Assembly (NCBI GenBank): GCA_963844035.1
Contig: CAWJMT010000004.1
Coordinates: forward strand, 391,566-455,565
Direction of reading: 5' to 3'
DNA from: an uncultured Gemmatimonadales bacterium
GTDB taxonomy: Bacteria; Gemmatimonadota; Gemmatimonadetes; Gemmatimonadales; GWC2-71-9
Length of the DNA stretch: 64,000 nucleotides
In this document: in pieces, positions 17,417 to 21,701 of the stretch
Numbering within the stretch: position 1 is the stretch's first letter
How the letters are laid out: each line of letters starts with the position of its first letter
Made by a program: the position numbers and the translations under genes
Notes under the pieces: model-generated
What the model was told of the DNA's origin: nothing
Databases searched by the model: none
What the model saw: the letters and a program-made list of their open reading frames with translations, nothing else

Positions 17417-17567
17417 TTTTCCCCGGGCTGACAGCCCGGGCTCGGCGCAAGAGTGCGCCCTGTAAGGGCGCACCCCGGGCCGAGCGCGCCCTCTTAGGGC
17501 GCGGGTTCACGAAACCCAGGATCCCACCGAAGTCATCCGTGAACCCCGGGCTTGTGCCCGGGGTCAG
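17417..17567. repeat. ~150-bp multi-hairpin REP/REPIN-like element, copy 1
   Basis: Several palindromic stems; highly similar direct copy at 18394-18544. Confidence 0.85.
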
Positions 17568-17594
17568 TAGAGGCTCCTCCGTCTTTTACCAGCC

Positions 17595-17618: not shown

Positions 17619-17762
17619 ACCCGGCGTGGTTTCGTCCCCCCTCGCGTGTTTCGGGCACCTCAACCCTTCGGTATGGCTTGCATGGTCTCGACGTGGGCGG
17701 CAGCACGTATGGGATCACGCGTCTCGGCCTTCGGGATTGCCTGGGTTCGCAGCCGGAAAGGT

Positions 17763-17846
17763 GCTGGTGTGGCGAAACAGGTAAACGCGGAGACCTCACA
17801 CGTCTCTGGGCGAAAGCCCTTGTGGGTTCGAATCCCACCACCAGCA
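17763..17846 (+). tRNA. Type II tRNA with a tRNA-Leu body but a CAC (Val) anticodon; CCA not encoded
   Basis: Acceptor GCTGGTG/CACCAGC with A73; D arm GCGAAACAGGTAAACGC; anticodon stem GAGAC/GTCTC with loop CT-CAC-AC; variable arm GGGC-GAAA-GCCC; T arm GTGGG-TTCGAAT-CCCAC. Confidence 0.93.
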
Positions 17847-17863
17847 CCCTCCCCGCACCACTC

Positions 17864-17892
17864 TTGACTCGGCGATGAGCCGAGATGAAGTT
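17864..17892 (+). promoter_or_regulatory. Putative sigma70 promoter of sRNA1 (TTGACT-17 nt-GAAGTT)
   Basis: Same -35 box, spacing and GAnGTT -10 box recur at 18669-18697, although most of the spacer differs. Confidence 0.6.
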
Positions 17893-17898
17893 GTCACT

Positions 17899-17970
17899 AC
17901 GTGTGAGGTCTCCGCGTAGTGCGCCGTTCGCTACGCTGCTGAAGGCCGGAGGGGCAACCCTCCGGCTTTC
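17899..17970 (+). ncRNA. Putative sRNA antisense to the anticodon arm of the upstream tRNA (copy 1)
   Basis: 17899-17917 is the exact reverse complement of 17785-17803; followed by a GCGTAG/CTACGC hairpin and a terminator. Confidence 0.7.
17941..17970 (+). terminator. Intrinsic terminator
   Basis: GCCGGAGGG-GCAA-CCCTCCGGC-TTTC. Confidence 0.75.
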
Positions 17971-18002
17971 GCATTTCCGGGACGGAGGGAGTGCCTTCGT
18001 GA

Positions 18003-18027
18003 TACCGCGGGGCATGGCCCCGCGGTA
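18003..18027. repeat. REP-like palindrome
   Basis: TACCGCGGGGC-atg-GCCCCGCGGTA. Confidence 0.55.
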
Positions 18028-18047: not shown

Positions 18048-18383
18048 GTCCGCGCGCACTTTGCGACCGTCAGCGAGCATCTTCCAATTGTCCGCGCGCA
18101 CGTTGTGATCGTCAGCGGGCATCTTCCGACTGTCCGTGCACACTTTGCGACCGTCAGCGAGCATCTTGCAACTGTCCGCGCACGTCTTTCCGCTGTCAGC
18201 GCACACTTTGCGACTGTCCGCAGGCACTGGGGGACTGTCCGCGCGTTCTTGGGCGTGATCCGGGGACACTTTGCAAACGACAGAGCGCACTGGGCGATTG
18301 TCCGAGCGCTTTGGGGGACGGTCCGGGGACATCGGGGGATCGTCAGCGCGTCTCTTGCAACAATCCGAGCATTCCTCGGGCCG
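18048..18383. repeat. Degenerate 21-bp tandem array, 16 units, no indels, open on both strands
   Basis: Consensus ~GTCCGCGCGCACTTTGCGACT; the first 8 units alternate GTCCG/GTCAG. Confidence 0.85.
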
Positions 18384-18393
18384 AACCGCGTCC

Positions 18394-18544
18394 TTTTCCC
18401 GGGCTCATAGCCCGGGCTCGGCGCGAATGTGCGCCCTGTAAGGGCGCACCCCAGGCCGAGCGCGCCCTCTCAGGGCGCGGGTTCACGAAACCCAAGATCC
18501 CGCAGAAGTCATCCCGTGAACCCCGGGCTTGCGCCCGGGGTCAG
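18394..18544. repeat. ~150-bp multi-hairpin REP/REPIN-like element, copy 2
   Basis: Direct copy of 17417-17567, with differences mostly in loops and linkers. Confidence 0.85.
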
Positions 18545-18621
18545 CACAGACGGCGACGACGTGACAACCCGACCGCCCGACCGCCGCCTTTGTGGTTTGA
18601 CCGCCTGACCGCCGCATCACA

Positions 18622-18651
18622 TTGTGGGTTCGAGTCCCACCACCAGCACCC
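18622..18651 (+). pseudogene. 3' fragment (T arm plus acceptor strand) of the same tRNA
   Basis: TTGTGGGTTCGAGTCCCACCACCAGCACCC matches 17820-17849 at 29 of 30 positions. Confidence 0.85.
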
Positions 18652-18668: not shown

Positions 18669-18697
18669 TTGACTCGGCCGCGGCAATTCACGATGTT
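18669..18697 (+). promoter_or_regulatory. Putative promoter of sRNA2 (TTGACT-17 nt-GATGTT)
   Basis: Same architecture as 17864-17892. Confidence 0.6.
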
Positions 18698-18703
18698 TTC
18701 ACT

Positions 18704-18773
18704 GTGTGAGATCTCTGCGTAGCCAGTTTCGCTACGCCAAGAAAGCCGGGGAGCGTAACGCTCTCCGGCTTTT
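18704..18773 (+). ncRNA. Putative anti-tRNA sRNA, diverged copy 2
   Basis: GTGTGAGATCTCTGCGT, then GCGTAGC/GCTACGC hairpin, then AAAGCCGGGGAGCG-taa-CGCTCTCCGGCTTTT terminator (possibly bidirectional). Confidence 0.65.
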
Positions 18774-18782
18774 GAGGCGTGT

Positions 18783-20262
18783 CTATGCCCGCCAACTCCG
18801 CGCAGCTCTCTCCACCAGCTTGCACCATCGCCCAGGTGTCGCGCTCGCAGTAGTCGAGCAGGTCCTGCCGCACGCGATCGCGCTCGTGCTGCGGGATCTT
18901 GTCCGCGACAAACAGGAGCCGCGCGATCTCGACGCTCGCGACGCCGGCCGTCCACGATCACGAGATCGTTGTAGGTCAGCTCGGGGACGAGGGGCGTGAG
19001 GATGTCCTTCAAGCTGAAGCTGCCCCTGAAATCGGGGTGGTAGACGCAGTTCTTCACGACCGGGATGCAGGTCGATCAGCTTCGCCTCGAGCGCCGTGAG
19101 CTCGGCGGCGAGGTCGGGCACCGCCCGTTGCAGCTCCCGGATGCGGGTCCTCTCGAATGGCGTGTACGTCGCCACCCGCTCGGCGTTGGCGGTCGCTCGC
19201 ACCATCGCTTCAGCGAGCGGCGGGCGCGCGTCCTTCGGTCCTTCGGCGAGGAACGCCGCGTGAGTGTAGGTGCCGTCGGGCTGACGTTCGTGGTAGCTGA
19301 ACTGAGCGGCGGCCTGCTGCCAGGGGGCCATGCCGGGCCAGACGGGGATCGCACGAGCGATGGTTTCGAAGTCGAGGAAGCCCAGGCGCCCCGCAAATGG
19401 CTCCAGCTCACTTCGCGAGCGTCGGCTCGACGATGACGCGGTTCTCGGCCATCGCCTTGAGCTGGCGTTTCTGCGTGAAGTTGAGCTTCTCCTTCGCCGG
19501 CAACTGGCCGATCGAGGTGATGCCGCGCTCGAGATAGGCCGACGGTCTTTTTCGGTCCCGACGCCGGCGAGGTTCCCGATATGGTCCGGCCCGTCGGGCC
19601 AGCAGCGCTTCAAGAACGGGCAGTCCCGCGGCTCGAAGCAGTGCGCGCCGATCGATACGTCGGGGAGCGGCCCGACGAGCATCGCCCGCTGCGCCGCGAT
19701 CTCGTCCGGAACCGTGGGGAGCAGCGCGACTACCGCCCCGGTCACGTCGGTGCGGGCGAAGAGGTCGCCCGTGTCGGGATGCCGGAACTCCTTGTTGAGG
19801 TGCATCACCTCCGCGCTCGTGACGTTCACGCCGCAGGCCGCGGCGACGCGGGCCTGGATGGCGACGTCCGGGATGTGCTCGTCCTTCTGTGAGGTGGATG
19901 ATTTCACCTCGGTCAGCCGGTAGCCGTCGTCCTGCTTCTCGAGCACGTCGATGGCGACGAACATGCCGTCGGCGATGAACGTCGCTTCGAAGACCGCGGG
20001 GGCGCCCGCATCAAGCGCCTTCTTCGTCGCCGCGACGCGCTCGGCGCCCGCGTTGTGCGGCAGGTCGATCAGCACGCCACCCGGATATCGCGCGCGGGCC
20101 GCTTCGCCCACCTGGCGGCCCTGGTCGAAGAGGTCCTGTAGCACCTTGTCGGGCTGGAGCTCGAGCGGCGTCGGGCTCGTGCACTTCCCACCACAATTTC
20201 TTGTGGCATTGGAGGCCGGAGGTGAAGCGGGATTTGGAGAGGCGGGGGAGGGGCTGGGTCAT
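18783..20262 (-). CDS. DUF2779-type protein: Cas4-like PD-(D/E)XK nuclease plus C-terminal RNase H-like exonuclease domain (several frameshifts)
   Basis: LSKSRF..GLQC.KKLW; IDVL...LTEVKSST; C.....C.....C; FLDFET; GSFSLK; LLDYCERDT. Confidence 0.8.
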
Positions 20263-20873
20263 GGCTCAAAGGTTAGCACCTGGGTGCGACAGGCGACAGG
20301 AGCGCGAGGAGGACATGTTGCGGCAGGACTCGTCGCTGCGGGCCTTGTTCTACCGCACCTGGGGGCTGGCGATCGTCACGGGGCATATCCCGCCCCACCC
20401 CCCCCCGGTGTCGGTCACGATCGATTGGGTGCCGAGGGTGCTGGTGGAACACCGCGATGGATCGAACCAGGACTCTCCTGATCCAGAGCCGAGCCAGCGG
20501 GTTTGTTTGGAGGACACCATGTCCGTAAGTGGTTGCCCGCCAAGCATCGGCGCCCGCGGGCTCGGGGGGCAATGTCCGGATTGGTCCGGAGAAACGCTTA
20601 CGAAACAGTTGTAGAGAGTTCTGGTCGAAAACGACTCTGCCTGAACCGAGGGCTCTCCTATCGCCTGATCAGGAGAGTGATCGCGTTTGCGGTCTTACAA
20701 AGGTTTCTGGCGAGCCTGCTGAACCCACTGTTTGACCTGGGTCAGGAGGGTGCTGACTCCCTTGGGCAATGCAAGCGTCCGTTCAGGTATGCGCTCGCAG
20801 CATTGCGCCTGAGGTTGAAGGTCGTCCGTCGGGGCTCTAGTTGGCCGCTGCAGCCGCTCGTTATGTTTCCACG

Positions 20874-21701
20874 ATGACTCGACTCCGTCCCTCGGATCGA
20901 ATTCGGCTAGTCAGCGATATCGGCAGAGCTGTTCAGGCAGCCATGAAGGTGGCGGATATCCCGGGCTATCTCAGGGCGTTTGGTGTCCAAGCCGACATTA
21001 CGGGACCAGTAAGTAGCAAATGGGTACTCATCCGTGAGCTGCTCGGCGGACGAATCGGAAGAGACTATCCTCGCTATAGCGCGTGACCTGCATGTATCAG
21101 TGCCCGGAGAGGTCGCCCAGGGCGCTCTCGATTTGGCCCGTTTATTGTAGGACCGAGGCATGCAGGTCTGCCAGGAAGACTTTGCGCGCGCCCTTGAGAC
21201 TGTGGAGGCCGATCCGGCCCAGGCGATCGGTCACGCCTGCGCGTCCTTGGAAAGCATCTGCAAGGCCATTCTGGATGCACTCTCGATTCCGTTTCCGAAG
21301 GACCAAACCCTGAAGCCGCTGGTTAGGGCGGTCGCTGATGAACTACAGCTTTCCCCGAAAGACACGCGGATGTCGACCTAAAGCAACTACTAGGGGGTCT
21401 TGCAAATGCCGCCGCGGGTATCGCTGTTATTCGGACCAAGTACAGTACTTTTCACGGCAAGAGCCCAACCCAGCGGCGCCTTGTAGGGCGTCACGCGCGG
21501 CTGGCAGTTAATTCAGCCGCGGCCGTCAGACTATTCTTCGTGGAGACTTATCTGGCACGGTCCAAAGGCACGTCGAAGGATGATTTGGCAGAGATAGAGG
21601 AGCACATTGCTGACGTCGAAGAGATGCAGAACGCGCCATTCACCGAGGAAGGCAGACCTCGCATCCGAAGAATGTTTCGCCCACCACCCCGTCGAGACTA
21701 G
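20874..21701 (+). pseudogene. Abortive-infection family (Abi_C-like HEPN) protein, with two frameshifts and an in-frame TAG at 21148
   Basis: AIGHACASLESICKAIL; RTKYSTFHG (R-x6-H); RHARLAVNSA; GC lower than the core genes. Confidence 0.72.

Follow-up and report, generated by a model that had tools for sequence, protein, structure and literature searches.

The window, by which we mean the whole stretch of 64,000 nucleotides of DNA that was analysed, contains a single tRNA gene (ARAGORN; Rfam RF00005, 59 bits), and this gene is anomalous in that a body of the leucine type bears the valine anticodon CAC. The mismatch had been claimed in an earlier note on this DNA and is borne out by ARAGORN, by Rfam RF00005 and by the fold. 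The gene is preceded by a conserved leader and followed, on the same strand, by a predicted promoter and a predicted small RNA complementary to the tRNA (Table 1). The leader and a second, orphan antisense unit (18704-18774) had been overlooked in the earlier note. No Rfam match besides the tRNA was found at or near the gathering threshold.

Table 1. Features of the locus, in window coordinates
Feature	Position	Strand	Basis and remarks
Predicted weak -10 (nAnnnT) of the tRNA precursor	17681-17686	+	Predicted; no canonical -35 at 17 nt
Conserved ~70-nt 5′ leader, predicted cis lock	17693-17762	+	Alignments, covariation, nascent folds; start predicted
Type II (Leu-body) tRNA, Val anticodon CAC at 17797-17799	17763-17846	+	ARAGORN, Rfam; predicted effector
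Predicted sigma-70-type promoter, TTGACT-17-GAAGTT	17864-17892 (TTGACT 17864-17869; GAAGTT 17887-17892)	+	
Predicted ~75-nt antisense sRNA	17899-17975	+	Complementarity, folds, covariation; ends predicted
Exact 19-nt complement of tRNA nt 22-40 (17785-17803)	17899-17917	+	Inverted-repeat listing
sRNA hairpin, 3′ side pairing with tRNA nt 3-14	17914-17936	+	
Terminator-like stem	17941-17970	+	
Remnant of a second tRNA, 3′ 30 nt (T arm, acceptor 3′ strand)	18622-18651	+	97% direct repeat of 17820-17849
Orphan second promoter and antisense unit, predicted RNA from ~18704	18669-18774	+	Alignment

The surroundings of the module are repetitive. Two copies, 91% identical, of a 155-bp multi-palindromic REP-like repeat flank it (17418-17572 and 18394-18549), and partial copies of this repeat are present on host contigs C5, C21 and C31. 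At 18048-18370 lies a degenerate tandem array (period 21 nt) that recurs nowhere else in the genome; the ORF overlapping it has no Pfam match. The orphan unit is followed by an apparently frameshifted DUF2779 gene (18783-20144, minus strand); DUF2779 genes also lie directly beyond the module in loci L053 and L054. The fragments of a broken reading frame at 20860-21700 on the plus strand have no Pfam match, and its translation resembles what we take to be an abortive-infection C-terminal domain. From about 21760 onward to the contig end the G+C content drops abruptly from ~65% to 21-35%; this part, whose genes include NAPRTase and Hsp20, is probably a chimeric join of foreign DNA in the contig. 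One identical contig (X1) covers 17663-17891 and another (X2), with one difference, covers 17860-18010; neither spans the two arms, and the one or the other may not be independent. X20, probably DNA, contains relatives only.

The fold of the window tRNA is a 7/5 cloverleaf (acceptor stem 7 bp, T stem 5 bp) whose variable arm is long, and the tRNA body resembles the leucine tRNAs of the host. It carries A73, A15-U48, A20a and G18G19, which together with the long variable arm make up the E. coli tRNA-Leu rule set; CCA is not encoded. G18G19 and A20a were read off the sequence, and both were also demanded by the family search patterns. The ordinary Val-CAC tRNA of the host is a 74-nt gene at another locus. 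Codon reassignment is unlikely, since canonical Val and Ala tRNAs are both present in the host genome and none of three same-genus genomes matches the pattern. Across the 138 listed copies with a readable T arm (13 copies were excluded), A73 is present in 136 and A15-U48 in all, the acceptor stem has 7 bp in 133 and the variable region 15 nt in 132, the alanine determinant G3·U70 is found in none and CCA is encoded in one.

AlaRS identity resides in G3·U70 and AspRS identity in G73. Leucylation is the default prediction for Leu-body tRNAs with non-Leu anticodons; by established identity rules it is firmly predicted for the copies with Ala, Asp and Glu anticodons, and less surely for the CAC copies, including the window tRNA. 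CAC is the commonest anticodon (53 of 151 copies among the matches listed), and these copies bear A35, C36 and A73 and could be valylated and harmless. The available text of PMC9976931 names A35, C36, A73, G20, G45 and acceptor pairs as ValRS determinants, and has E. coli LeuRS requiring A73 and hinge elements while leaving the anticodon unread. The Val determinants accord with a reading, quite unlikely in our judgement, by which the tRNA does not mistranslate and is either a cognately charged spare decoder (charged by ValRS in the case of CAC) or an uncharged decoy for anticodon nucleases or tRNA-binding toxins, reserved by the sRNA. Common C33 and the protein toxin-antitoxin and nuclease genes that are often adjacent (Phd/YefM, RelE, HicB, Fic, HNH, Uma2) would also suit a spare or decoy. 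However, cognate charging cannot be general, because the Ala-anticodon copies (CGC, GGC, TGC and AGC) lack G3·U70, a pair found in none of the 138 copies listed, and the Asp-anticodon copies bear A73; moreover, the body is uniformly of the Leu type, and a harmless spare would need no two-layer locking.

The main target codons GCG, GCC, GTG, GAG and GAC hold ranks 1, 2, 7, 8 and 9 in host usage, computed over 1001 long host ORFs. Identity elements and codon rank taken together suggest that a mistranslating tRNA of this kind would be toxic. U33 is replaced by C33 in 13 of 51 genome copies and 32 of 97 metagenome copies among the matches listed, and decoding by these variants may be weaker. The prevalence of C36 may reflect tRNAs that do without elaborate modification of position 37.

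The 19-nt complement that the earlier note described downstream of the tRNA is exact and is the longest perfect inverted repeat listed between 16000 and 22000. The TTGACT element, the 17-nt spacer, GAAGTT and the 7-nt distance from there to the complement were all confirmed in the sequence. The stem described there as a strong terminator is present; its strength was not upheld, the U-tract being short and a consensus promoter and terminator scanner calling neither the terminator nor the promoter of the antisense unit. The -10 (GAAGTT) is weak, with 3 of 6 consensus matches, and the promoter is predicted because the motif is conserved across the family: among the matches listed, 48 of 51 genome copies (random-position control: mean 0.31, maximum 2) and 93 of 97 metagenome copies have TTGnnn-16/18-nAnnnT with its end 3-9 nt ahead of the complement. 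The motif sits 5-9 nt ahead of where pairing begins, and since pairing falls sharply from ~90% at position 40 to ~40% at position 41, the complement starts at the predicted start site. In the homologues inspected a hairpin and then a terminator-like stem follow, and the antisense unit has a promoter and terminator of its own as sequence motifs.

Complementarity exceeds what was first described. Nucleotides ~20-45 of the unit also pair with tRNA nt 3-19, and the whole downstream unit is complementary to tRNA nt 3-40, that is, to the 5′ half. The 3′ side of the sRNA hairpin forms at least 10 bp with tRNA nt 3-19 in 143 of the 148 copies listed, with an energy of -22.7 kcal/mol versus -11.9 kcal/mol for shuffled sequences, and in the alignment 89% is paired, with modest covariation. 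The mean unpaired probability of sRNA nt 1-15 is 0.43-0.86, a partly open 5′ end that would form a putative toehold.

The absence of a terminator between tRNA and complement and the very stable fold-back of the two (z -5.8) could also mean that the complement acts in cis only, as a fold-back trailer of the tRNA precursor, with no separate sRNA. We find this hardly credible in view of the promoter motif that stands directly ahead of the complement in 48 of 51 and 93 of 97 listed copies. Orphan units in the host likewise start at the promoter, and in L070 and L119 promoter and complement have been displaced from the tRNA together as one block.

Homologues are numerous, and the arrangement that the earlier note had proposed to look for, a mismatched type II tRNA followed by the complement of its anticodon arm, recurs in other genomes. 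The best matches in 61 related genomes are the same module with anticodons CAC, CGC, GGC and GCC; the 15 canonical Leu tRNAs in the related-genome loci have no complement longer than 10 nt. A pattern scan of species genomes, requiring a Leu-type D arm and an anticodon ending in C or T, gave at least 120 matches at at least 118 loci. Among the matches listed, 40 are titled Gemmatimonadota, including bacterium HR33, which we take to belong to that phylum, and a downstream-complement score of 11 or more was reached by 38 of these 40 and by 4 of the other 80. Of the two exceptions, L135 has an antisense unit with a 1-nt gap, and in L089 the tRNA is interrupted and the complement decayed. Within 401 Gemmatimonadota genomes, 28 carry the pattern, with 46 matches of which 43 end in C, and there are six with a non-Leu anticodon ending in a purine. 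A strict rule that the anticodons end in C was refuted by three GCG-anticodon copies with cognate units. Thirteen of 20 further tRNAs scored at least 8, and of these the anticodon matched in 13 and the promoter was found in 12; two more, scoring 6.5 and 7, had a matched anticodon and a promoter, the register in this set being that of the best pairing.

An anticodon-blind scan of metagenomes, with a pattern made of the leader and the first tRNA bases, found at least 120 loci, reduced to 100 distinct copies by removal of 11 truncated or irregular ones and of duplicates. The anticodons among these listed matches are CAC (38), CGC (26), CTC (13), GTC (13), TTC (3) and GGT (2), plus five singletons, two of which are probably numbering artefacts. 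No Leu anticodon occurs in the 100 listed copies or among the legible anticodons of the 11 dropped. The antisense unit is present in 97 of the 100 listed copies. Decayed copies mostly lose the tRNA and not the antisense unit: the tRNA is deleted in L295, where the downstream sequence is kept, and in L244 and L296, and L273 has an intact tRNA without an antisense unit. The distribution of the module is patchy and multi-copy.

The anticodon and its complement change together. Among the matches listed, anticodon and anti-anticodon are Watson-Crick matched in all 51 genome copies, which comprise 12 anticodons (permutation control: mean 10.9, maximum 21), and in 95 of 97 metagenome copies. These registers were chosen by pairing, and hence the comparison was repeated on listed matches with a loop-blind register, which matched 41 of 53 copies (37 of 41 where the register was good), and with a pairing-independent register anchored on the sRNA hairpin motif, which matched 51 of 54 metagenome copies. 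In a helix test on 29 rows picked from the nearer clade, 91% is paired and 14 of 19 pairs are compensatory; shuffles gave 0 of 500 and slid controls 28-48%. The covariation across homologues on which the earlier note had staked its proposal also holds when 145 copies are placed on a tree from which the anticodon arm and the complement of that arm were left out, with at least 62 anticodon changes and 64 joint pair changes, counts that are rough because the sequences are short. Independent tree pairs agree for CAC (7 of 7) and CGC (6 of 6); there are too few pairs for CTC and GTC.

G·U pairs outnumber A·C at positions 29-38 by 35:3 and 21:2 in two sets, and this excess in the core points to RNA pairing on the tRNA strand. 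Over positions 27-40 of the listed metagenome copies the bias is gone (40:34), because an A39·C mismatch is frequent at the duplex end. A role as editing guide was ruled out, the anticodon being fully paired with no target mismatch. The G·U bias also makes it very improbable that the complement is a DNA-level feature, such as the arm or attachment site of a site-directed mobile element, an invertible segment or an inverted repeat kept by template switching. The 30-nt duplicate of the tRNA 3′ end ahead of the second unit in the window resembles what is left after integration, and palindromic repeats flank the locus, but pairing begins at the predicted transcription start, none of the 15 canonical Leu tRNAs in related-genome loci has a unit, no recombinase is linked among the neighbour ORFs, and an exact 16-nt duplicate of the tRNA 3′ end is found in only one of 33 loci, where it belongs to a second full module (the exact test misses the window's own duplicate, which has one mismatch).

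The leader is imperfectly complementary to the 5′ half of the tRNA, with 17705-17722 facing the D-stem/anticodon arm and 17738-17756 facing the D loop and the acceptor 5′ strand. In the leader-tRNA helix 86.8% of alignment cells are paired, covariation is 0.297 versus 0.208 for shuffled and at most 0.122 for slid controls, and D-loop changes are mirrored in the leader, including A17 of the window copy. Among the matches listed, 20 of 41 copies have the anticodon loop masked by the leader in their minimum-energy structure, the controls being an average of 0.5 nt for shuffled leaders and 2 of 15 canonical Leu tRNAs. For listed metagenome copies, 23 of 60 full-length and 51 of 60 nascent folds have at least 15 nt engaged by the leader, against 9.3 and 26.7 of 60 with shuffled leaders, the nascent control being high. 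In the window copy the D arm is caught in the nascent folds; with the 3′ flank added the cloverleaf becomes the favoured structure, and for the read-through transcript a form locked from both sides is predicted. The A and T of the precursor -10 occur at matching offsets in 63 and 60, respectively, of 88 anchored homologues among the matches listed. A conserved TTG(G/A)T(A/T)C-like motif ~24 nt upstream of this -10, ~45 nt before the leader anchor, is a possible regulator site.

The host genome contains several copies. Of its 67 ARAGORN calls, four are Leu-body tRNAs, with anticodons CAC, CAC, CAC and TGC, and each is followed by an exact complement of its own distinct arm (19, 19, 19 and 12 nt); the downstream complement of the other 63 is at most 10 nt. 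Because only the four Leu-body tRNAs with non-Leu anticodons exceed 10 nt, the 19-nt complement is not due to chance. A profile search found seven downstream units, four beside a tRNA and three orphans that begin at the antisense promoter, and no orphan tRNA, a lopsided pattern of decay. The orphan unit in the window has 81% column identity to the first copy and fits a different tRNA allele; the 5′ part of its own tRNA and its leader are missing. For each of the four mismatched tRNAs the most stable cofold is the one formed with the unit that belongs to it (-24.5 to -38.3 kcal/mol), the window tRNA reaching -24.9 kcal/mol with its cognate unit versus -18.9 with the orphan unit. Canonical host tRNAs attain at most -15.7 kcal/mol with any unit and -6.4 with the window unit.

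The neighbourhood of the module was surveyed in 136 flanking ORFs at 36 loci, after 6 of 142 ORFs were dropped as overlapping the RNA locus or as short end fragments. No partner protein (synthetase, editor or recombinase) common to the loci was found among the 136, and no Cas family among these or the host-locus ORFs. Amid housekeeping genes, the flanks hold Phd/YefM, RelE with HTH, HicB, Fic, HNH (3), Uma2 (3), WYL, DUF2779 (2) and IS genes (2 loci), families that are given as plain tallies and imply no enrichment. No conserved toxin ORF was found, the ORFs of the locus being interrupted or strand-variable in homologues. The two IS loci aside, no tyrosine or serine integrase family occurs in the flanks of the 36 loci, and the integrase with duplicated tRNA 3′ end of a tRNA-integrated island was not found. 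Viral contigs gave no match with two family patterns and, with a generic Leu-body pattern, one locus without same-strand antisense; plasmids gave no match covering the module and two weak tRNA-only matches. With no viral copy and no adjacent integrase, the element loss that the earlier note had suggested as a trigger is left without direct support.

Related arrangements occur outside the Gemmatimonadota. Same-strand units with promoters were found in Planctomycetota (L062, L115 and L116) and in a Gammaproteobacteria bin (L081). In L115, L116 and L062 promoter and antisense unit follow Leu-body GTC tRNAs, and the units of L115 and L116 target the variable arm and the 3′ side of the anticodon, with 21 and 12 nt exact. 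A different layout is seen in 16 of 55 other listed Leu-body C36 tRNAs, which have an opposite-strand terminator directly upstream (controls: shuffled 2.95, maximum 6; neighbouring tRNAs 2 of 87; Gemmatimonadota copies 0 of 39), and 3 of the 55 also have an opposite-strand promoter within 70 nt. This suggests, as a lead, an overlapping antisense transcript for non-Gemmatimonadota Leu-body C36 tRNAs.

Several other groups of unusual tRNAs were observed. Loci L047, L055, L057, L064, L080, L082, L092, L094, L100, L121, L127 and L149 encode ~98-nt Leu-body tRNAs with non-Leu anticodons and an extra variable-arm helix, and directly against their 5′ ends lies an opposite-strand terminator; in L092 and L057 an opposite-strand promoter motif is present just downstream as well. 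Leu-type D arms with non-Leu anticodons and broken acceptor ends occur in Bacteroidota, Patescibacteria and Chloroflexota (L066, L072, L076, L102, L105, L114, L120, L122, L126, L138 and L151), and no antisense was found at these loci. L152 and L157 are Leu-type tRNAs with the Pro anticodon TGG and no antisense unit, one with a very long variable arm. The GTT tRNAs of L049, L058, L073, L074, L084 and L108, which lie in tRNA arrays and whose D loops are Leu-like and extra arms short, are probably a different class.

The family combines a leader-tRNA-antisense anatomy with complementarity that covaries, promoter motifs that are conserved and Leu identity elements that have been retained. We consider it likely that the locus is a type-I-like, protein-free toxin-antitoxin module, in which the toxin would be the predicted mistranslating Leu-body tRNA and the antitoxin the predicted antisense sRNA. 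The interpretation in the earlier note stood in all the parts that sequence can address (homologues, covariation, a promoter at fixed distance, RNA-level pairing and Leu identity). It is also fairly probable that the module represents a widespread, undescribed all-RNA toxin-antitoxin class: a code-breaking tRNA, built on a Leu chassis whose anticodon can be exchanged freely, would be locked by its self-complementary leader and kept silent by an anti-tRNA sRNA that originated as an inverted copy of the tRNA 5′ half, with new specificities arising through paired anticodon/anti-anticodon changes. The same toxin would occur in other phyla, accompanied either by a same-strand sRNA that targets the variable arm (Planctomycetota) or by an overlapping opposite-strand transcript.

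In the model we propose, a tRNA with a non-Leu anticodon would insert leucine at a frequently used codon, which for the window copy is Val GUG; a separately promoted sRNA would keep that tRNA inactive. A weak promoter would produce the leader and tRNA, with read-through to the sRNA terminator in the absence of a terminator after the tRNA. The precursor would be locked, with the leader zipped to the D arm and to the 5′ strand of the acceptor, and the trailing antisense copy paired with the anticodon arm; slow 3′ trimming and refolding would then allow RNase P and the CCA enzyme to yield mature tRNA. The short sRNA would seed on the anticodon loop through its largely unpaired 5′ end and unzip the 5′ half, and its binding would block charging or decoding or invite RNase III. 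If transcription stopped or the locus were lost, the sRNA would decay first, the locked precursor would mature, and LeuRS would charge the tRNA, leading to proteome-wide misincorporation of leucine and growth arrest. Such a module might act in addiction, in dormancy or against phages. Natural missense tRNAs kill E. coli, as reported in the available text of PMC5389517, and locked precursors are described as a type I feature in that of PMC5416894. Weighing against the toxin-antitoxin reading, CAC copies may be valylated, C33 may weaken decoding and the -10 is weak; among the matches listed, no more than 20 of 41 and 23 of 60 copies favour leader pairing when folded at full length; and viral contigs, plasmids and neighbour ORFs give no link to mobile elements.

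All the covariation data would also be consistent with a tunable, non-lethal switch, in which stress lowers the sRNA and limited Leu misincorporation diversifies or slows the proteome to the benefit of the cell. Scattered chromosomal sites, one of them between ruvB and queA (L069), and C33 variants that would decode weakly fit such a switch. It is nevertheless unlikely, in that the free and frequent switching of the anticodon (62 changes on 145 rows) and the four different alleles in one genome are better explained by escape from cross-neutralisation than by a finely tuned function of the host, and only 28 of 401 Gemmatimonadota genomes carry the module.

If the toxin-antitoxin reading is true, the code-corrupting tRNA would be a toxin of a new kind and the antisense RNA, within reach of our literature search, the first one dedicated to the control of a tRNA. 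The module would also explain mismatched-anticodon tRNAs that are annotated as ordinary Val or Ala tRNAs. At ~300 nt, with a need for host enzymes only, the module would be a natural design for switchable tRNAs. The earlier note had not recognised the arrangement as a described family, and we found no paper describing it; in the open full-text literature no tRNA with a dedicated antisense RNA came to light, the nearest systems being allo-tRNAs and type VIII toxin-antitoxin systems.

Type I systems such as hok/Sok and tisB/IstR have locked precursors. The likeness of the module to type I extends to a predicted loop-seeded duplex and to an antisense RNA with promoter and terminator, here present as motifs; its leader covaries and rules the full fold in only about half of the listed copies. 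In aapA1/IsoA1 the antisense antitoxin has its own promoter and the full-length toxin transcript is inactive until processed (available text of PMC5416894). Type I toxins, however, are small proteins made from mRNA, whereas the controlled RNA here is a tRNA and there is no toxin ORF.

Allo-tRNAs, in the accessible parts of PMC5389517, are likewise surplus tRNAs with long variable arms and mismatched, diverse anticodons; they mistranslate, kill E. coli and lie near toxin-antitoxin genes in soil bacteria. They have 8/4 or 9/3 acceptor branches, mostly Ser identity (G73/U73) and a Sec-like D arm, unlike the Leu-body family, which has a 7/5 branch (7-bp acceptor, 5-bp T stem), A73 (136 of 138 listed copies) and Leu hinge elements. 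The long variable arm (132 of 138) and an anticodon unrelated to identity (no Leu anticodon in 100), among the matches listed, are common to both. In that source Mukai et al. found such mismatched tRNAs toxic and named no antidote, and the words "antisense" and "complementary" have no occurrence in its text and supplement as available.

Type VIII systems have an adjacent RNA as cognate antitoxin; our locus has a cognate complement with a promoter motif and covariation, from which a putative antitoxin RNA would be made. SdsR is a regulatory sRNA. The accessible part of the TADB 3.0 paper (PMC10767807) gives two validated RNA-RNA systems, CreTA and SdsR-RyeA, and in both, as predicted for our module, the partners are adjacently encoded RNAs, whether from one strand or from opposite ones. 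The action of CreT likewise involves tRNAs, but CreT itself is a mini-mRNA by which rare host tRNAs are sequestered, and its transcription is repressed by CreA through CRISPR-Cas (PMC8501985, as far as its text is available). The CRISPR-repeat-derived antitoxin linked to type I cas genes that characterises CreTA was not found here: no Cas family occurs among the 136 neighbour ORFs or the host-locus ORFs, and Rfam matches only the tRNA. In neither known system, as far as these sources describe them, is the toxin a tRNA or the antitoxin directed against one. In the TADB scheme the module would, if the reading is true, become the third member of type VIII and would differ in mechanism from the other two.
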